A stretch of 42,394 nucleotides of DNA from Gemmatimonadota bacterium (GCA_031365045.1 JANLXK010000283.1:1-42394), one strand, 5' to 3'; shown: positions 1,022 through 40,198, numbered from the stretch's first letter. Notes: generated by a model from the sequence alone, not told the origin. Program-made: numbers and translations.

Positions 1022-1705
1022 ATGTTCGATGAAAAACTGACCCACTCAGATCGTCGCGGTTTCTTGACCAGGACCGCGGCCGGTGCTGCGATGGCCGCAC
1101 TCGCCACCCTCCCCGCCTGGGTCGAGGCGGAAGCCCCGATGCAGGCACCCGAGATCGACGCGAACAAGATGTGGCTCCGTGGTGTGGACTCGAAGTGCCG
1201 CCAATTCTTCGAGACCGCGAAGATGGACACGATGATCCCGTTCCATCACGTGGCGAACTACTTCGCCGCCTGGCGCGCCACGCCGAGGATCAAGCCCGGT
1301 GACGTGATGGCGGTCGTGGGGATCTTCGGATTCGCCGTGCCGGCGCTGTTCGGCGACGCGATGTGGGAGAAGTACTCCTTCGGCAAGGCCACGAACTTGA
1401 CCGATGCCTCCACCGGCCAGCCCTACATCCGCAATCCATACCTGGCCCCGCGCAACGGGGAACTGTTCGGCAGCGACTCGGTAACGCCCGCGGCGCTCCA
1501 GGGCCTCGGCGCACGCATCATCCTCTGCAACAATGCCTTCACCCTGTTCGTGGCGATGTCCTCCGCGGCGACCAACCAGGCCCCTCCCGTCGTCCGCGCC
1601 GAGATGCTTCGGCACCTCGCCCCTGGAGTAACGCTCGTCCCGGCGATGGTGCAGGCGGTCGAGCAGGCGCAGCGGGCGGGACTCACCTATATGAAGAACT
1701 CGTGA
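1022..1705 (+). CDS. Tat-exported protein of unknown function (weak DsrE-like impression only)
   Basis: ATG 1022 lies 5 nt after a strong AGGAGG (1011-1016) that abuts the upstream stop. The N-terminus SDRRGFLTRTAAGAAMAALATLPAWVEA is a twin-arginine signal. Codon usage is coherent to the stop at 1703-1705. Confidence 0.6.
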   Translation: MFDEKLTHSDRRGFLTRTAAGAAMAALATLPAWVEAEAPMQAPEIDANKMWLRGVDSKCRQFFETAKMDTMIPFHHVANYFAAWRATPRIKPGDVMAVVGIFGFAVPALFGDAMWEKYSFGKATNLTDASTGQPYIRNPYLAPRNGELFGSDSVTPAALQGLGARIILCNNAFTLFVAMSSAATNQAPPVVRAEMLRHLAPGVTLVPAMVQAVEQAQRAGLTYMKNS

Positions 1706-1805
1706 GCGGTGAGCGGTAAGCAGTGAGCGGGGGCCCACGGTCGGGCCCCTTTCTCATACCTGCTACAGCCGCCATACTCTCTCCTGCGGCCCGCTCACCG
1801 CTCAC
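1702..1805. repeat. tandem-repeat-armed palindrome A: GTGAGCG x4 (1702-1729) / CGCTCAC x2 (1792-1805)
   Basis: Read directly from the sequence. The stop of the upstream gene (1703-1705) lies in the first unit. The spacer contains a small hairpin. Confidence 0.8.
1731..1748 (+). terminator. small GC hairpin (GGGCCC-acggtc-GGGCCC) followed by CCTTTCTC, inside element A
   Basis: 6-bp stem, 6-nt loop and a T-rich trail, 26 nt after the stop at 1705. Confidence 0.45.
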
Positions 1806-1818
1806 CTTTGGGCCTTCC

Positions 1819-2928
1819 GTGACCGAACCCCTGGACCGGATCCGCAGCTTGGACGCCTTTCGCGGCCTCACGATCGCGGGGATGATCCTGGTCAACAACC
1901 CGGGGTCGTGGGGGGCCATCTATTCACCGCTGGAGCACGCCGCCTGGAACGGATGGACCCCCACCGACCTGATCTTCCCCTTCTTCGTCTTCATCATGGG
2001 GATCTCGGCGGCTCTGGTGATCCCGCGTCGGCTCGAAGCGGGGATGTCAAAGGGGAAGGTCGCCCGGCAGGTGGTGGTGCGGGCGACCCTCCTTTTCCTG
2101 ATCGGTCTCGCGCTCAACGGCTTCCCGCACTACGACCTCGCCACCATCCGGGTGATGGGGGTCCTTCAGCGGCTGGCGCTCTGCTATCTCGCCACCGGCG
2201 TCCTCGTGACTTTCACCACGCCGAGGGCCTGGCGGCACTGGGTCGCGGCATTGCTCCTCGGGTACTGGCTGGCGCTCCTCCTCATTCCCGTGCCGGGATA
2301 CGGCGCCGGCGTGCTCGCGCCCGACGGCAACCTGCCCCAGTATGTCGACGCCCTCGTCTTCGGTGCTCATCGTTGGCTGCCAGCGTGGGACCCGGAAGGG
2401 ATCCTCAGTACCTTCCCCGCCGTCGCGAGCTGTCTCCTCGGCGCGCTCACCTGGCGCTGGTTGCGGGAGGAGCGGAGCGTGGCGGAGCTGGCGCTGGGAT
2501 TGATGCTGGGCGGGGACGCGCTGCTGCTGCTGGGCTGGGCCTGGAGCTGGGTCTTCCCGATCAACAAGAATCTCTGGAGCAGCTCCTACGTGCTCTGGAC
2601 CGCCGGGATGGCGATGCTGGTGCTGGCCGCGCTGATGTGGGCGATGGATGGACTGGGAAAGGTGCGGTGGGCGCGGCCGCTGGAGCACTATGGCACCAAT
2701 GCGCTGGCGGTCTTCGTGCTGTCGGGACTCATCGGACGGCTGATCACGCTGATCAAGATCGGGGAGGGCGCGCAGGCGACCACCCTCAAGGGGTGGATCT
2801 TCAACAACTTCTTCCTGTCGTGGGCGAGCGAAGTGAACGCGTCGCTGGCCTTCGCGGTCGCGGTAGTGCTGCTCTTCTGGGGAGTGGCGTGGGGGATGTG
2901 GCGGAAGGGGTGGTTGGTACGGCTGTGA
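1819..2928 (+). CDS. membrane acyltransferase, heparan-alpha-glucosaminide N-acetyltransferase-like (DUF5009/DUF1624 family)
   Basis: RIRSLDAFRGLTIAGMILVNNPGSWG...WNGWTPTDLIFPFFVFIMG is the characteristic N-terminus of this family, followed by many TM helices. I start at GTG 1819, after the repeat hairpin. The track start at 1723 lies inside the repeat element. Confidence 0.75.
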   Translation: MTEPLDRIRSLDAFRGLTIAGMILVNNPGSWGAIYSPLEHAAWNGWTPTDLIFPFFVFIMGISAALVIPRRLEAGMSKGKVARQVVVRATLLFLIGLALNGFPHYDLATIRVMGVLQRLALCYLATGVLVTFTTPRAWRHWVAALLLGYWLALLLIPVPGYGAGVLAPDGNLPQYVDALVFGAHRWLPAWDPEGILSTFPAVASCLLGALTWRWLREERSVAELALGLMLGGDALLLLGWAWSWVFPINKNLWSSSYVLWTAGMAMLVLAALMWAMDGLGKVRWARPLEHYGTNALAVFVLSGLIGRLITLIKIGEGAQATTLKGWIFNNFFLSWASEVNASLAFAVAVVLLFWGVAWGMWRKGWLVRL

Positions 2929-3020
2929 GGAGTGAGGAGTGAGGAGTAAGGAGTAAGGACTGGGAAGTGAGAGGGGGTGCAGGTATCTCCACTTCTTACT
3001 CCTCACTTCTAACTTCTCAC
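2925..3020. repeat. tandem-repeat-armed palindrome B: GTGAGGA/GTAAGGA-type heptamers x7 (2925-2973) / TCCTCAC-type x5 (2986-3020)
   Basis: The arms are reverse complements apart from a few mismatches or wobbles. The element spans exactly from the stop of the + gene (2926-2928) to the stop of udk (3017-3019). It is a likely bidirectional terminator. Confidence 0.85.
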
Positions 3021-3649
3021 TGTCGCCGCCGGCGGAGCTCGTCCCGCACGCGCGCCTGGATCATCTCGACCCCGATCACGTTGTGCCCCCCTTCGGGGAT
3101 GATCACGTCGGCGAAGCGCTTGCTCGGCTCGACGAACTCCAGGTGCATTGGCCGGACGGTGGTGAGGTACTGGGTGATGATCGACTCGACCGAGCGCCCC
3201 CGCTCGGCGATGTCGCGTTGCATCCGGCGGATGAAGCGGACGTCGTCGGCCACGTCGACGAAGATCTTGATGTCGAAGAGGCGGCGGAGCCGCGGGTCGA
3301 CGAAGAGCAGGATCCCGTCGACCAGGATCACGTCCCGCGGCTCGACCCGGACGGTCGCCTCGGCGCGGGTATGGCGGGCGAAATCGTAGGTCGGCTTGTC
3401 GATCGCGACCCCGCTCGCCAGCGACTGCAGATGGGCGATGAGCAGGTCGTTGTCGAGGGCATTGGGGTGGTCGAAGTTGACCTTGGCCCGGTCCTCGAGC
3501 GGCAGGGCGTGGAGATCCTTGTAGTAGGCGTCCTGATCCATGAAAGCAGCGTCGACGCCGCCGAGGGCGCCGAGGATGGCGCGGGCAACGGTGGTCTTGC
3601 CCGAGCCGGAACCGCCGACCAGTCCGATGATCAATGGTTTCGATACCAT
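3017..3649 (-). CDS. udk: uridine kinase
   Basis: P-loop GLVGGSGSGKTT at the N-terminus. Full-length similarity pattern to Udk (NFDHPNALD, VILVDGIL, RRMQRDIAERGR). Confidence 0.9.
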   Translation of the reverse strand: MVSKPLIIGLVGGSGSGKTTVARAILGALGGVDAAFMDQDAYYKDLHALPLEDRAKVNFDHPNALDNDLLIAHLQSLASGVAIDKPTYDFARHTRAEATVRVEPRDVILVDGILLFVDPRLRRLFDIKIFVDVADDVRFIRRMQRDIAERGRSVESIITQYLTTVRPMHLEFVEPSKRFADVIIPEGGHNVIGVEMIQARVRDELRRRRQ

Positions 3650-3665
3650 GACGACAATCTAGAGG

Positions 3666-3803
3666 GGTAGGAAGGTAGGAAGGTAGGAAGGTAGGAAGGT
3701 AGGAAGGTAGGAAGGTAGGAGGGTAGGAGGGTAGGATGGTATGAGGGCACGCTCTCGGGCCGGGGGCACCCCTCCTACCTTCTTACCCTCCTACCATCCT
3801 ACC
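3666..3803. repeat. tandem-repeat-armed palindrome C: GGTAGGAA octamers x10 (six perfect, 3666-3745) / CTCCTACC-type x4 (3772-3803)
   Basis: Counted directly. It fills nearly all of the divergent intergenic region between udk (start 3649) and the Rieske oxygenase gene (start 3812). Confidence 0.9.
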
Positions 3804-3811
3804 TTTAGTCG

Positions 3812-4936
3812 ATGCAGCGCCCCGCCACTCTCCCCGCGTTCAGCCCCGCCGACCTTGAGGTCGTCCCGGTCACCCGATCGGACACGATCCCGTCGAGCTG
3901 GTATACCGACCCCGCCTTCCATCAGGTGGATCGGGATGCGGTCTTCGCCCAGAGCTGGCAGAACGTCGGCGCCGCCGACCAGGTGCGAGAGCCGGGCCAG
4001 TTCATTGTAGGCACCGTGGCCGACAACCCGGTGATCGTGGTGCGCGGGCAGGGGGGGGAGCTCCGCGCCTTCTATAACGTGTGCAAGCACCGGGGCGGCC
4101 CCCTGGCGCTCTGCGACGGCCAGGCCAAGTCGCTCCGCTGTCAGTATCACGGGTGGACCTATCTTCTCGACGGTTCCCTCCGTGGCGTCCCCAAGATGGA
4201 CCGGAGCGAGCTTTTCGATACGAAGGACTTCGGCCTCGTCCCGATCAAGGTCGACCTCTGGGAGGGCCAGGTCTTCGTGCACCTCGGCGCCGACCCGCGG
4301 CCGGTGGCGGAGACCTTCCAGGGGATCGTCGAGCGGATCGCGCCGACCAAGGTGGGTGGGCTCACGTTCGCCCGGCGGGTGGACTACGAGGTCGGGTGCA
4401 ACTGGAAGGTGTACGTCGACAATTTCCTCGAAGGGTATCACGTCCCCTTCGTGCACCCGGAGCTCGTGTCGCTCTTCGAGTATTCGCAGTACCGGACCGA
4501 GGTCTTCGACCGGTACAACCTGCAGTGGACCCCGCTCGACGCGAGCACGCCGTCACCGTACAGCGGGAACGGGGCCGAGGATGGGGGTGGCCAGGCCTTC
4601 TATTACTGGGTGTGGCCCAACTTCATGCTCAACATCCTTCCGGGTCGGCTCCAGACCAATGTCGTCGAGCCGCTCGGGCCGGACCGGTGCCGCATCGTGT
4701 TCCGGTACTTCTACAAGGACATCGAGAGCGCCGAAGGGAAGGCGCGGCTCGAGGCCGATCACGCGTACAGTGAGAAGGTGCAGGTCGAGGACCGGGAGAT
4801 CTGCGAACGGGTGCAGGCGGGGCTGGGGAGCAGGGCGTACGACAAGGGGAGGTTCAGCCCGGAGATGGAAGCGGGCGTCTGGCATTTCCAGTCGCTGCTC
4901 AAGGGGGCTTATGCCGAATTAGTCGGTGGTCGGTAG
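3812..4936 (+). CDS. Rieske [2Fe-2S] non-haem iron oxygenase, alpha-subunit type
   Basis: Rieske motif CKHRGGPL...CQYHGWTY. C-terminal catalytic domain with NWKVYVDNFLEGYHVPFVHP (His ligands). Confidence 0.85.
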   Translation: MQRPATLPAFSPADLEVVPVTRSDTIPSSWYTDPAFHQVDRDAVFAQSWQNVGAADQVREPGQFIVGTVADNPVIVVRGQGGELRAFYNVCKHRGGPLALCDGQAKSLRCQYHGWTYLLDGSLRGVPKMDRSELFDTKDFGLVPIKVDLWEGQVFVHLGADPRPVAETFQGIVERIAPTKVGGLTFARRVDYEVGCNWKVYVDNFLEGYHVPFVHPELVSLFEYSQYRTEVFDRYNLQWTPLDASTPSPYSGNGAEDGGGQAFYYWVWPNFMLNILPGRLQTNVVEPLGPDRCRIVFRYFYKDIESAEGKARLEADHAYSEKVQVEDREICERVQAGLGSRAYDKGRFSPEMEAGVWHFQSLLKGAYAELVGGR

Positions 4937-5010
4937 TCGATCGCTAATGTTGGGTAAGTTGGAGTGCGTCTCTCGTCTCTCGTCTCTCGTCTCTCGTGCT
5001 CTCGTGCTCT
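4922..5010. repeat. single-arm tandem repeats D: GTCGGTN x3 (4922-4942), then CGTCTCT x4 plus CGTGCTCT x2 (4967-5010)
   Basis: Counted directly. No reverse-complement arm is nearby. The oxygenase stop TAG (4934-4936) lies inside the first repeat. Confidence 0.8.
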
Positions 5011-5012
5011 CA

Positions 5013-5459
5013 ATGAATCGCAGCCGTGTCCTCGTCTCACTCGTCTTTCTCGCCGCCTGTGGTCATTCGCTCTGGCCGTCGACCACCGTGGTGACCCCGG
5101 TGGCGGTGTCGGAGACCTACCGCTGCGTCGACTCGATCTCCGGCACGCTCGGGTACAAGCCGTTCCAGGCGAAGCCGGCCGAGGGGTTCCTGCGGACCCG
5201 GAAGGCGGTGGTCGAGAGTTCGCCCGACGTCTTCGACCAGCAGCCGTATGACCAGCTGCGGGCGGAGATCGTCTCCGGTACCGCAGGGACCAGCCTGACC
5301 ATCACCGCTGAGTCCTATACCGAGCAGGTGTCGCGGCGGGGACGGGAAGAGGTGGAGAAGGAGGCACGCGCCGGTGTGATCGCCGATGCGAAAGTGGTGC
5401 TCGATGCCTGTGGGACCTCGACGCAGGTGCGCCCGGACCGGGTGCCGAACGTCAACTAG
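5013..5459 (+). CDS. hypothetical lipoprotein
   Basis: MNRSRVLVSLVFLAACG lipobox at ATG 5013. The longer track ORF (4926) would read through a tandem repeat. Confidence 0.55.
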   Translation: MNRSRVLVSLVFLAACGHSLWPSTTVVTPVAVSETYRCVDSISGTLGYKPFQAKPAEGFLRTRKAVVESSPDVFDQQPYDQLRAEIVSGTAGTSLTITAESYTEQVSRRGREEVEKEARAGVIADAKVVLDACGTSTQVRPDRVPNVN

Positions 5460-14903: not shown

Positions 14904-14935
14904 CGGTCGGGCGGTCGGGCGGCCGGGCGGTCGGC
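14904..14935. repeat. single-arm tandem octamer repeat E: CGGTCGGG-type x4
   Basis: cggtcggg cggtcggg cggccggg cggtcggc. It sits in the long region upstream of the sigma-factor gene. No complementary arm was found. Confidence 0.8.
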
Positions 14936-14940
14936 CAATG

Positions 14941-14985
14941 CCCATATTGTAAGTTGTTCATTCACAATAACTTACATCTGTGGTG
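14941..14985 (-). promoter_or_regulatory. AT-rich island with inverted repeat; candidate promoter/operator of the sigma-factor gene
   Basis: By eye, one of the most AT-rich stretches in the window. Inverted repeat TGTAAGTT-N13-AACTTACA (14948-14976). The minus strand reads ...TACAAT..., a near-consensus -10, but no good -35 is present. Confidence 0.35.
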
Positions 14986-16778: not shown

Positions 16779-17324
16779 TCACCACGTCACATCGCCGGCC
16801 CCATCCCGATGATTGGCCTGCCGCGCGAGCGTGAAGAGCAGATCGGAGAGCCGGTTGAGATAGACCAGGAAGAGCTCGGGCACCTCATGCTTGTGCGACA
16901 GCGCGATGACGCTCCGTTCGGCGCGGCGGCACACGGTGCGGGCGAGGTGGAGCGCGGCCGCCTTGGGGGTGCCGGCGGGGAGGACGAAGGCCTTGAGGGG
17001 AGGGAGCTCCTCGTCGGCCGCGTCCATCAACTTCTCGAACAGGGTGACGCGCTTCCTGGACAGGTCGGCCTTCTCCAGCGCCTTCTTCACCTTCTCCGGA
17101 TGCGGGGTGGCGAGGTGGCCACCGAGGGAGAAGAGGTCGCGCTGGATCGACTCGAGGAGGTCGTCAGAGAAGTGCACCGGCTGGGTGGCGCGCGCGACGC
17201 CGATGGCGCTGTTCAGCTCATCGATGTCGCCGTACGCCTGCACGCGCACGTGGTCCTTGGGGACCCGTCCGCCGCCGAAGAGGCCGGTCTCGCCGGCGTC
17301 GCCGGTCTTGGTGTAGATCTTCAT
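16779..17324 (-). CDS. ATP:cob(I)alamin adenosyltransferase, PduO type
   Basis: MKIYTKTGDAGETGLFGG N-terminus at ATG 17324. The conserved AR motif falls within LHLARTVCRRAER. Confidence 0.88.
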   Translation of the reverse strand: MKIYTKTGDAGETGLFGGGRVPKDHVRVQAYGDIDELNSAIGVARATQPVHFSDDLLESIQRDLFSLGGHLATPHPEKVKKALEKADLSRKRVTLFEKLMDAADEELPPLKAFVLPAGTPKAAALHLARTVCRRAERSVIALSHKHEVPELFLVYLNRLSDLLFTLARQANHRDGAGDVTW

Positions 17325-17333
17325 GGTGGAAAT

Positions 17334-17420
17334 GTAAGGAGTAAGGAGTGAGGTGTGAGGAGGTTGCCAGTCGGGACGAGTCCGTTCCTGACTCCTCACT
17401 CCTCACTCCTCACTTCTCAC
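17334..17420. repeat. tandem-repeat-armed palindrome F: GTAAGGA/GTGAGGA x4 (17334-17361) / TCCTCAC x4 (17393-17420)
   Basis: Same heptamer family as element B. It lies between two co-directional minus-strand genes. The stop of the upstream gene (17417-17419) is in the last unit. Confidence 0.85.
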
Positions 17421-20588: not shown

Positions 20589-21026
20589 ATGGCGCGTGCG
20601 ATCGAGATCCTCGTGGTCGAGGACGAAGTGGCGGTGCAGCGGCTGGTGGATGTGGTCTTCCGCGTCGCGTCGGACGATTTCCTGGTGCAGCGGGTCGGGT
20701 CGCTGGCGGCGGCGAGCAAGGCGGTGATGACGCTGACCCCCGACCTGATCCTGCTCGACCTCGACCTCCCCGACGCCACGGGGCTCGAGGCGGTGAAGGC
20801 GCTGCTGCACCTCGCGCCCCGGTCGGCCATCGTGATCCTTACCGCCAGCACCGACGACGCGATGGCCCATGAGGCCATCCGGCTGGGCGCGCAGGACTGG
20901 CTCCAGAAGAACGCCGACCTGCAGCGGCTCCTGCCGCGCGCCGTCACCTTCGCGGTGGAGCGTCAGCGGCGGCGGGTGGGGCTGCTGGCCGAGATCGCCA
21001 GGTTGCAGGAGAGCCCTGAAGGGTAG
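20589..21026 (+). CDS. stand-alone response regulator receiver protein (CheY-like)
   Basis: ILVVEDE...LILLDLDLPDATG...VILTAS...K pattern of a receiver domain. No output domain. Starts 8 nt after the reductase gene. Confidence 0.8.
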   Translation: MARAIEILVVEDEVAVQRLVDVVFRVASDDFLVQRVGSLAAASKAVMTLTPDLILLDLDLPDATGLEAVKALLHLAPRSAIVILTASTDDAMAHEAIRLGAQDWLQKNADLQRLLPRAVTFAVERQRRRVGLLAEIARLQESPEG

Positions 21027-21132
21027 GAAGGTAGGAAGGGAAGAAGGTAGGAAGCGATGCGGGGCCCGACCACCACATTGGTGCTCTGGCCCCGCTTCAC
21101 TTCCTACCCTCCTACCTTCGTCCCTTCCTACC
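21022..21132. repeat. tandem-repeat-armed palindrome G: GGTAGGAA-type x4 (21022-21053) / TTCCTACC-type x4 (21101-21132), inner stem GCGGGGCC/GGCCCCGC
   Basis: Same octamer family as element C. It lies between convergent genes. The response-regulator stop TAG (21024-21026) is in the first unit. Confidence 0.85.
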
Positions 21133-21140
21133 CAGGTCGC

Positions 21141-22697
21141 CTACTTCCCGATCTCCACCACCAGGCTGTCCAGCTGGTTCAGCATGTCCCGGCCGCGCTG
21201 GGTGTGGTGGTTGGCCTGGATCGAGAAGGTCCACCGGCGGCCGTCGGGGCGGTCGATGTAGCCGGTGATAGTGTTCACCCGCGAGATGCTGCCGGTCTTG
21301 GCGTGCACCCGTCCCTCGAGCGCGGTCCCGCGGAACCGGTTGCGGAGCGAGCCCACCTGCTGGGCCTGCGGGAGCCCCGCCGTGAACGTCGCCGCGCGGG
21401 GGTGCTGGGTGATGAAGCGGATCACCTGCGCAAAGGCGAGCGGGCTGATGAGGTTGTTCGCCGCCAGGCCGGAACCGTCGGTCATCGCGATCTGGGTCGA
21501 GTCCACGTGGACGGAGTCGATCAGGAAACGACGCTCGACCTCGATCCCCTTGTTCCAGCTCCCTTCTCCCGCGAACACCCGGCCGAGCTGCTTCAGCAGC
21601 ATCTCCGCGTACCAGTTCTGGCTGGTGTTGAGGATGGGGAAGACCCAATCCTTGAGCGGCCGGCTCTCCACCTCGGCCAGCGCCGGGGCGGTGGAGCGCG
21701 CCAGGTGATAGACGGTCGAGTCTACTGTGGAGCGAGTGGTGCCGAGCACCGCGATGCCGTAGTCGGCCAGGACCTTGCGGAGCGCCCGCGCGGTGAAGAG
21801 GTCGGGGTCGGGCATCGCGAAGTACTCGGTGCCGCCGTGACTGGACGCGCCGACGGTGCCCTCGGCCCAGAGGGCCAAGCCCCCGGGAGTGCGGAAGAAA
21901 TCGATGTTGTCGCTGCTGTCGGCCGGGAGGGTGCGCGTGCGGTTCTCCAGCGACACGTCGCCAAGGTCGGGGGTGAAGGCGATCGCCGCGGGGGCGTTCA
22001 CCATCGGTCCCGGGCCCCAGGCGATGTCGATGCTGTTGTCGTTGAAGCCGAGCCCTGAGACCGGCGCCGCGTACCACCAGTTGAGGTCGTACCCCTCCCA
22101 GCCGTAGTGCACCATCGTCGGCTCGAAGTAGCTCCCATCCCCCACCAGGTCGCCTCGCACCACCAACACGCCGCGGGCGCGGAGCTGTTCGGCGAGGAGC
22201 TTGAGCTTCTCGAACGGGTCGCGGTCGCAGACGCCGGGCGCCAGGGTGTCGGTCGCATAACAGCGGACGCCGTACGTCGGATCGCCCCGACCGTAGAGGA
22301 CCAGATCTCCTTCGAGGACCCCGTTCGTGATGGGGCCGGTGCCGTAGACCGAGGTCTTCACCGTGAAGTCGGGCGGCAGCAGGGCCGAGGCGACCGCGCT
22401 CACGATGAGCTTGGTGTTGCTCGCCGGGATGAAGAGCCGGTCGGCGTTCCGGGCGTAGAGCGTGCGGCCCCGCTCGTCGATGACCACCACGCCCCAGAGG
22501 TTCCGGTTGAAGGGTGCCGCGTCGAGCCGGCGGTCGAGGCGTCGCTGGAGCGACTGCGCGGACAGGCGCACGGACGCACAGACGCACAGCAGCAATCCCA
22601 AGAGCAGCGTGCGTCCCCACACCCGTGCGCCCGTGCGCCTGTGCGACCGTACTTCCGTGCGCCTATTCGAACGCCACACGGGGATCTGCCTTGGCAT
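21141..22697 (-). CDS. dacB: D-alanyl-D-alanine carboxypeptidase/endopeptidase, PBP4 (peptidase S13)
   Basis: Active-site PASNTKL (SxxK) and full-length PBP4 pattern. The signal peptide is LLLGLLLCVCASVRLSAQ. ATG 22697 overlaps the permease gene by 35 nt. GTG 22622 is an alternative, non-overlapping start. Confidence 0.85.
   Translation of the reverse strand: MPRQIPVWRSNRRTEVRSHRRTGARVWGRTLLLGLLLCVCASVRLSAQSLQRRLDRRLDAAPFNRNLWGVVVIDERGRTLYARNADRLFIPASNTKLIVSAVASALLPPDFTVKTSVYGTGPITNGVLEGDLVLYGRGDPTYGVRCYATDTLAPGVCDRDPFEKLKLLAEQLRARGVLVVRGDLVGDGSYFEPTMVHYGWEGYDLNWWYAAPVSGLGFNDNSIDIAWGPGPMVNAPAAIAFTPDLGDVSLENRTRTLPADSSDNIDFFRTPGGLALWAEGTVGASSHGGTEYFAMPDPDLFTARALRKVLADYGIAVLGTTRSTVDSTVYHLARSTAPALAEVESRPLKDWVFPILNTSQNWYAEMLLKQLGRVFAGEGSWNKGIEVERRFLIDSVHVDSTQIAMTDGSGLAANNLISPLAFAQVIRFITQHPRAATFTAGLPQAQQVGSLRNRFRGTALEGRVHAKTGSISRVNTITGYIDRPDGRRWTFSIQANHHTQRGRDMLNQLDSLVVEIGK
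22566..22662. repeat. tandem-octamer palindrome J: GCGCACGG/ACGCACAG x3 (22566-22589) / CCGTGCGC-type x5 (22623-22662)
   Basis: The right arm exactly fills the 40 nt between the permease stop (22663-22665) and GTG 22620-22622 of dacB. The left arm lies in the dacB signal-peptide codons. Confidence 0.8.
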
Positions 22698-40094: not shown

Positions 40095-40198
40095 GAGGTG
40101 AGACGTGAGGAGACAAGAGGAGACAAAAGGAGACGATGAGACCAGAACTCCGAGACTTCGGTCGTCTCCTCCCGTCTCCTCCCGCCTCCTCCCGTCTC
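40095..40198. repeat. tandem-repeat-armed palindrome H: NNNAGGAGAC decamers x5 (40095-40142) / GTCTCCTCCC x3.5 (40164-40198)
   Basis: Read directly. It lies between acpS and the FTR1 fusion gene on the same strand. It is a likely terminator or insulator. Confidence 0.85.

Follow-up and report, generated by a model that had tools for sequence, protein, structure and literature searches.

Purine-first tandem-arm palindromes at ancestral gene stops in a Gemmatimonadota genome

The window, a 42,394-nt stretch of DNA from a Gemmatimonadota bacterium that corresponds to contig C192 of its assembly (2.79 Mb in 567 contigs, 68% GC), contains intergenic hairpins with arms made of short tandem repeats (Table 1). 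One of these, element B, lies between two convergent genes, a membrane protein gene without a Pfam match (1819-2928) and a gene of the uridine kinase family (3017-3649), and the stop codons of both fall in its outermost units. We read TGA at 2926, 2933 and 2940 in the 5′ arm of element B (positions modulo 3 of 1, 2 and 0), TAA at 2947 and 2954, and AGGAG at 2928, 2935, 2942 and 2949. The 3′ arm is the 5′ arm of the minus strand, where its units read GAAGTGA/GAAGTTA. RNA from the plus strand of the element is predicted to fold at −58.6 kcal/mol (z = −7.5) and RNA from the minus strand at −38.1 kcal/mol (z = −4.6).

Table 1 Tandem-arm elements of the window and the gene stops within element B (copy numbers marked TRF are from TRF)
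Feature	Coordinates	Strand	Description
Element A	1702..1806		GTGAGCG arm 1702-1730; CCGCTCA arm 1791-1806
Element B	2925-3021		97-nt hairpin with arms of 7-nt repeats
Element B, 5′ purine arm	2925..2971	+	GTGAGGA/GTAAGGA, ~6.7 copies (TRF)
TGA stop, membrane protein gene 1819-2928	2926..2928	+	
Element B, spacer	2972..2989		18 nt; small apex hairpin GGGGGTG...ATCTCC
Element B, 3′ pyrimidine arm	2990..3021	+	CACTTCT, ~4.6 copies (TRF)
TGA stop, uridine-kinase-family gene 3017-3649	3017..3019	-	PF00485; TCA on +
Element C	3666..3803		GGTAGGAA x9.5 (3666-3741) and CCCTCCTA x4 (3770-3803)
Element F	17334..17420		GTAAGGA arm 17334-17362; TCCTCAC arm 17386-17420
Element G	21022..21133		GGTAGGAA arm 21022-21054; TCCTACCC arm 21102-21133
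Weakly asymmetric element	22562..22663		ACAGACGC arm 22562-22589; CCCGTGCG arm 22622-22663
Element H	40107..40198		GAGGAGACAA x2.8 (40107-40134) and CGTCTCCTCC x3.6 (40163-40198)

The other elements of the window stand in varied gene contexts. Element A follows a gene that stops at 1703-1705, and its 60-nt spacer holds GGGGCCC...GGGCCCC TTTCT. Element C carries TAG in three frames (3668, 3676 and 3684) and lies between the divergent starts 3649 (minus strand) and 3812 (plus strand), where it is purine-first although no ribosome can enter. The stop of the DUF6526 gene (17417-17419) is in register with an arm of element F, and the TAG stop of a response-regulator gene (21024-21026) lies in the first unit of element G, which carries a GC hairpin in its spacer and faces a convergent S13 peptidase gene ending at 21141. 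Two minus-strand genes flank the weakly asymmetric element, and the unit of element H is stop-less and dense in GGAG. Direct reading bore out the stop coordinates that a sequence-only reading had given for elements B and C and for five genes, whose stops (1703, 2926, 3017, 17417 and 21024) all lie within the outermost repeat of an arm that TRF defined. The same reading had placed the densest Shine–Dalgarno (SD)-like sequence of the window in the arms, and this holds for B, F and H, which carry its densest AGGAG/CTCCT clusters. On the far side of element F, the conserved ATG of a cobalamin adenosyltransferase gene (17324, minus strand) is 9 nt past the arm and preceded by CATTTCCACC; SD-like sequence is absent from this start (17322-17334).

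Unpaired arrays are also present. At 4920-5015 two arrays are not complementary and nonetheless have the polarity of the paired elements: (TAGTCGG)x2.9 overlaps the stop of a Rieske oxygenase gene (TAG 4934-4936, in the third unit), and (CGTCTCT)x6 at 4967-5011 ends 1 nt ahead of ATG 5013 of a probable lipoprotein gene (MNRSRVLVSLVFLAAC...), so that an SD has no room before this start. At 14904-14980, (CGGTCGGG)x3.9 precedes a perfect palindrome rich in A and T, TGTAAGTTGTTCATTCACAATAACTTACA, that stands out from surroundings of 68% GC and could be a candidate operator or binding site. No Rfam family matched the window at gathering score.

We surveyed the whole assembly for pairs of TRF arrays of equal period with reverse-complement consensus units no more than 150 nt apart, and called 2584 genes with a codon-usage model of our own, in which stops are firm and starts approximate. 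This yielded 292 paired elements in 2.79 Mb, with periods of 7 (182), 8 (75), 10 (25) and 9 nt (10) and 93 distinct arm-1 units; some units recur at 19-23 loci, and members of a single unit family should not be counted as independent observations. A looser alignment criterion added ~130 further elements. Paired elements occurred at ~10-12 per 100 kb across all contig sizes. Samples of 20-40 kb from congeners (G003, G004, G006 and G008) and from other genera of the order held 0-1 pairs each, which limits the comparison of polarity in relatives to orthologous sites. We also observed that 98 of 1134 contig ends lay within 60 nt of a 7-, 8- or 10-nt array; the repeats probably fragment the short-read assembly of this genome.

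Purine-first orientation, which had been proposed from the window, proved general. The purine fraction of arm 1 exceeded that of arm 2 in 259 of the 292 elements and was lower in 30, and where the two differed by more than 0.3, 156 elements were purine-first and none pyrimidine-first. The exceptions were near-neutral units such as AGCGCCT, CGCACGGA and GGAACCCC. Polarity was retained by stop-less units (68 purine-first, 17 pyrimidine-first) and by the 20 elements between divergent starts (17:3). Elements occupied 34% of convergent, 9% of tandem and 10% of divergent junctions. At 86% of stop-facing flanks the gene stop was within ~20 nt of the arm edge, start-facing flanks being much looser, and single arrays likewise had the 5′ end of their purine strand 11 nt from the neighbouring gene, compared with 119 nt at the 3′ end. 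Of the 53 gene stops that fell within a three-frame arm, 39 were in unit 1, compared with 17.3 expected from entry in a random frame (P = 1e-9), so the predicted enrichment in the first unit extends to the whole genome. The two outcomes named beforehand as telling against it, pyrimidine-first elements being equally common and stops falling at chance, were both absent from the genome-wide survey.

We next consider what the arms contain. In base composition the 5′ arms contain 47% G, 22% A, 17% T and 13% C, and most follow the pattern GTG-N4 or GTAGG; GTG is found in 63% of heptamer units, GTAG in one family and CGTC in another. Wherever T precedes two purines the triplet is a stop codon, TGG excepted, and a period of 7 or 8 nt shifts the frame, which together give stops in three frames; stop blocks and AGGAG strings can thus be understood as compositional by-products of G/A-rich, C-poor 5′ arms with such a period. 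The proposed three-frame block was present in 160 of the 584 5′ arms; stops were found in two frames in 103, in one frame in 78 and in none in 243. Only 18 of 584 3′ arms had three-frame stops. We rejected frame-related selection on the period, as families of 9-mers equalled those of 10-mers (9 each); the period spectrum of intergenic arrays peaks at 7-8 nt, with multiples of three not avoided at the family level.

If the purine arm were a selected three-frame stop block with iterated SD sequence, trapping or releasing ribosomes from either flank, it would account for the excess of unit-1 stops far above chance and for two modest enrichments over letter shuffles: stop-bearing units were 1.45-fold in excess at the family level (49 vs 33.9 of 142), and AGGAG/GGAGG units, 12% of unit types, were ~2-fold in excess (17 vs 8.8 families, P = 0.003). 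Yet 42% of 5′ arms are stop-less in every frame, and the arms that ribosomes would meet have no stop excess: across 153 tandem contexts the stop density was 0.376 per 7 nt in the stop-facing arm and 0.378 in the start-facing arm, with more stops than in the partner in 48 and fewer in 49. Stop-less arms mostly keep the polarity and abut gene stops nearly as tightly as stop-bearing ones (43% at no more than 10 nt, 18% overlapping by 1-2 nt), and a role in translational termination, as had been proposed, finds no place in these comparisons. Stop-bearing arms were commoner between convergent (69%) than between divergent genes (52%).

For the SD-like strings, a ribosome-directed role would be favoured by the scarcity of SD cores at genuine starts: a 4-mer core at −18 to −8 preceded 27% of called starts (14% in the background), start calls being approximate, and ~73% had none, roughly as the sequence-only reading had supposed. 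SD use in this genome is low to moderate. It would be favoured, too, by the form of the (GTGAGGA)n array, for example at 2925-2971, which as RNA iterates AGGAG, 6 nt, GUG, four codons and UGA, making a five-codon mini-ORF (MRSEE*, the asterisk marking the stop) that is preceded in every one of the three frames by a well-spaced SD. We found no sign of use of these mini-ORFs. SD-like strings, moreover, are present in 23% of arms, where they are paired within the stem, and the arrays that carry them are not positioned before downstream ORFs. We accordingly rejected the arrays as SD sequences for downstream genes, and the suggested ribosome/anti-SD interplay loses its footing on the same counts.

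We compared orthologous sites across eight congeners. Stop positions were the same genus-wide for udk (...RRRR[QAG], the stop at 3017-3019), the membrane protein (...VRL, identical in relatives L004-L006), the DUF6526 protein (...DHLRA*), the response regulator (...SPEG*) and gene A (...YMKN[SA]*). The DNA after these conserved stops varied by species, consisting of GTGAGGA, GTGAGAA, GGTGACC, GTGAGCG, GGCTTAG, GCTTAAAG or GGAGCTT arrays, and in other congeners of a canonical GC-stem/T-tract terminator (L030) or nothing. At the site of element B, relative L006 has convergent stops 2 nt apart (TGAggCTA) and no element. Because stop positions are ancestral whatever occupies the site, the element is not what supplies these genes with a stop, contrary to what had been claimed for the five genes of the window. 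We infer from the orthologous sites that the element grows in a near-zero spacer, beginning at the ancestral stop, and that its units turn over in situ, with the arms remaining complementary.

Gene ends and arrays also shape one another. The C-terminus of an acs-like gene is ESEE* genus-wide, encoded by GAG AGT GAG GAG TGA, which equals 1.7 copies of the local GTGAGGA unit and suggests that this array was seeded by the gene's own end. An NAD-ligase-like (ligA-like) gene (G000:C399:9418-11466, minus strand; loci L203-L210) has the C-termini RRV*, RRVGR*, RVRSKG* and RRAVRR* in congeners and RRVGREEGRKGGS in this genome: it ends ...RRV in one relative and is lengthened by 2-5 residues from the repeat in three others, relatives with TAG, TGA or TAA in their units stopping after 0-5 codons, and here it runs on for 13 extra codons through a stop-less GGGAGGAA array. 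Reading frames that extend 10 nt or more into an arm belong to 27 genes of this genome. Judged from such termini, the only demonstrable effect of three-frame stops would be to keep the harm small where an array invades an ORF.

Arrays of the same sequence occur far beyond this genome. The exact 21-mer (GTGAGGA)x3 was found on more than 119 contigs from at least ten phyla, with carriers among Planctomycetota, Campylobacterota, Gammaproteobacteria, Betaproteobacteria, Cyanobacteria, Acidobacteriota, Bacteroidota, Clostridia, Chloroflexota, Streptomyces and Gemmatimonadales. Among the loci listed, a complementary array lay downstream of (GTGAGGA)n in 20 and upstream in 0, and 51 arrays were single; an ORF of at least 100 codons ended at the array in 47%, compared with 3% at random positions, with the stop in unit 1, 2 or 3 in 8, 8 and 5 cases. 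Pairs built of other units at these listed loci were purine-first in 16 and pyrimidine-first in 9. The genuine pyrimidine-first cases, such as L190, were weakly asymmetric without exception. One apparently strong case from another phylum (L100) was discarded, as on inspection it had no tandem-arm hairpin.

We consider it probable that the elements are fast-evolving tandem-arm palindromes located at ancestral stops, and that their stop blocks and SD-like strings are passive by-products. The palindromes would nucleate at the ancestral stops of compactly spaced genes and stay pressed against them, and the presence of gene ends in the first unit would follow from arrays starting at a pre-existing stop; some arrays may have been seeded by the last codons of a gene together with its stop. 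The three-frame stops would act as a passive fail-safe, and stop-bearing purine arms may be tolerated beside genes because an encroaching array then adds just 2-5 residues. Complementarity of the arms would arise through DNA-level slippage and intra-strand template switching rather than through selection on a single transcript. Across the 153 tandem contexts we found no sense-strand bias in folding energy (sense RNA more stable in 80, less stable in 73) or in G-U pairs (393 vs 435, sense/antisense comparison), and this similarity of sense and antisense folds argues that complementarity is kept at the DNA level. It is possible that the hairpin additionally serves as a putative RNA 3′-end structure. 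The by-product explanation leaves the polarity unexplained, since polarity also holds at stop-less units and divergent sites, and the 156:0 ratio far exceeds the bias expected from weak selection on C-terminal extensions. The enrichment of AGGAG units and the greater frequency of stop-bearing arms between convergent genes leave room for some selection.

The elements might instead be selected bidirectional transcription terminators or mRNA 3′-end stabilizing hairpins in which stops are incidental, a proposal we regard as unlikely. Purine-first order would then be needed because a pyrimidine/U-rich 3′ arm gives a weak rY:dR hybrid, as in a generalized U-tract/A-tract. Such a role would fit the concentration of elements at convergent junctions, their beginning directly after stops and the canonical terminator that replaces the element at the L030 orthologous site, and the elements resemble bidirectional intrinsic terminators, which likewise form hairpins where genes converge and carry a 5′ purine (A) tract and a 3′ pyrimidine (U) tract. 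A few enclose a canonical A-tract/GC-stem/T-tract terminator of matching polarity (the C377 element and element A); we rejected such wrapping as a general rule, as it is true for a few per cent. Spacers had their own hairpin in 148 of 266 cases, and TTTT was commoner in the 3′ half of spacers than in the 5′ half (9 vs 2), but at least four T in the following 8 nt were found for only ~10 of the 148 hairpins, and terminator-like sites in the window (4) did not exceed the shuffle expectation (6.4). The transcriptional stop role put forward in the sequence-only reading is weakened by this rarity of canonical T-tracts in spacers. Most elements lack the U-tract that, with a GC stem-loop, defines the intrinsic terminator class, to which we do not assign them; their stems are repeats of 30-70 nt, and unlike terminators they also lie in divergent promoter regions, with 20 between divergent starts. 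The absence of a sense-strand bias in G-U pairs or folding energy, and the existence of relatives that lack the element and have 2 nt between convergent stops, also count against a terminator function.

It is also conceivable, and in our view rather improbable, that purine-first order records a directional DNA process, the elements being repair or replication scars rather than selected signals. Sense-strand nucleation would proceed from the last purine-rich codons and the stop, and the array would be extended 5′ to 3′ away from the gene and then mirrored by fold-back or template-switch synthesis. We considered this because the arms are purine-first where stops are lacking and where no ribosome enters, with ratios of 156:0 here and 20:0 for the GTGAGGA heptamer across phyla, among them Planctomycetes, Campylobacterota, Cyanobacteria, Clostridia and Bacteroidota.

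REP, BIME and REPIN sequences are palindromes with a GTAG/CGTC head that occur in large numbers outside genes, chiefly past gene 3′ ends and where genes converge (PMC3116915, PMC3733652). The elements described here share with them their abundance, their location at gene 3′ ends and convergent junctions and their fixed polarity, and mobile palindromes of the REP/REPIN kind, dispersed by a Y1 (RAYT-type) transposase, with polarity inherited from a GTAG/CGTC-headed founder, would explain units with GTAG (GGTAGGAA) or CGTC (CGTCTCC) motifs and GTG heads as well as the recurrence of some units; inversion of a whole element cannot flip its polarity, so descent would preserve it. We nevertheless consider this origin very improbable. 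REPs are short, single and imperfect palindromes of 20-40 bp, represented by one or a few conserved sequences and associated with a RAYT gene, whereas here, despite GTAG/CGTC heads in some families, the arms are arrays of more than 90 distinct units, sister species carry different units at the orthologous site, indicative of in-situ turnover, and we saw no terminal inverted repeats or target duplications. The genome has five Y1 (IS200/IS605-type, PF01797) transposase matches, on G000:C66, C33, C440, C331 and C3, the two best of which were not called as genes by the codon-usage caller. No tandem-arm hairpins flank these five matches, two of which are on short contigs, and we found no RAYT association. 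The selected stop block with iterated SD sequence is hardly credible, given stop-less arms, polarity where no ribosome enters and stop positions that are ancestral.

Having weighed these alternatives, we return to fast-evolving palindromes at ancestral stops and compare them with repeats already described. Rehm et al. 2015 reported G-rich simple-sequence repeats, GGGAATC heptamers in Xanthomonas and GGGGAYT in Nostoc; 70-75 of the Xanthomonas arrays occur as pairs in 'convergent orientation', with the stop of the 5′ neighbour close by or inside the array, and no function was found for them (PMC4692102). The elements studied here share the features of this class: tandem intergenic units of 7 nt (6-9 nt for the class, iterated as a rule in at least 3-4 copies), arrays on opposite strands facing each other as a G-rich-first convergent pair, and a position 0-50 nt from the upstream stop or overlapping it, nearer the 5′ than the 3′ neighbour. 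They differ in having more than 90 units, of 7, 8, 9 and 10 nt, whereas Rehm arrays have one, in their density of ~10 per 100 kb and in that most units have no GGG tract: GTGAGGA, GGTAGGAA, GTGACCG and GTGTTGA have no GGG run, and GGGTGTT and AGTTGGG have one. With GGG tracts missing from most units, G-quadruplexes are not what unites the elements, and we did not assign them to the G-quadruplex subclass, G3+ tracts being confined to some units that carry GGG. MacGregor 2015 described TAACTGA direct repeats in Beggiatoaceae and cyanobacteria, in which three-frame stops are a necessary consequence of the unit, hence their overlap only with ORF ends (PMC4679880). Iteration of a stop-bearing heptamer gives stops in three frames in both cases, but the TAACTGA repeats are direct, of a single unit, mostly just upstream of starts and without a partner arm, whereas the elements here are paired. 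We conclude that the elements are a unit-diverse and very dense case of already described heptamer-type inverted-pair repeats.

Arrays of this kind break short-read assemblies, and for annotation they mean that in ~9% of adjacent genes the stop and the final 2-13 residues are encoded by the repeat and labile. For this abundant repeat class, the comparisons provide quantitative rules of polarity, abutment to ancestral stops, in-situ turnover of units and occasional rewriting of C-termini, and no dedicated role has to be invoked for the three-frame stop blocks or the SD-like strings.
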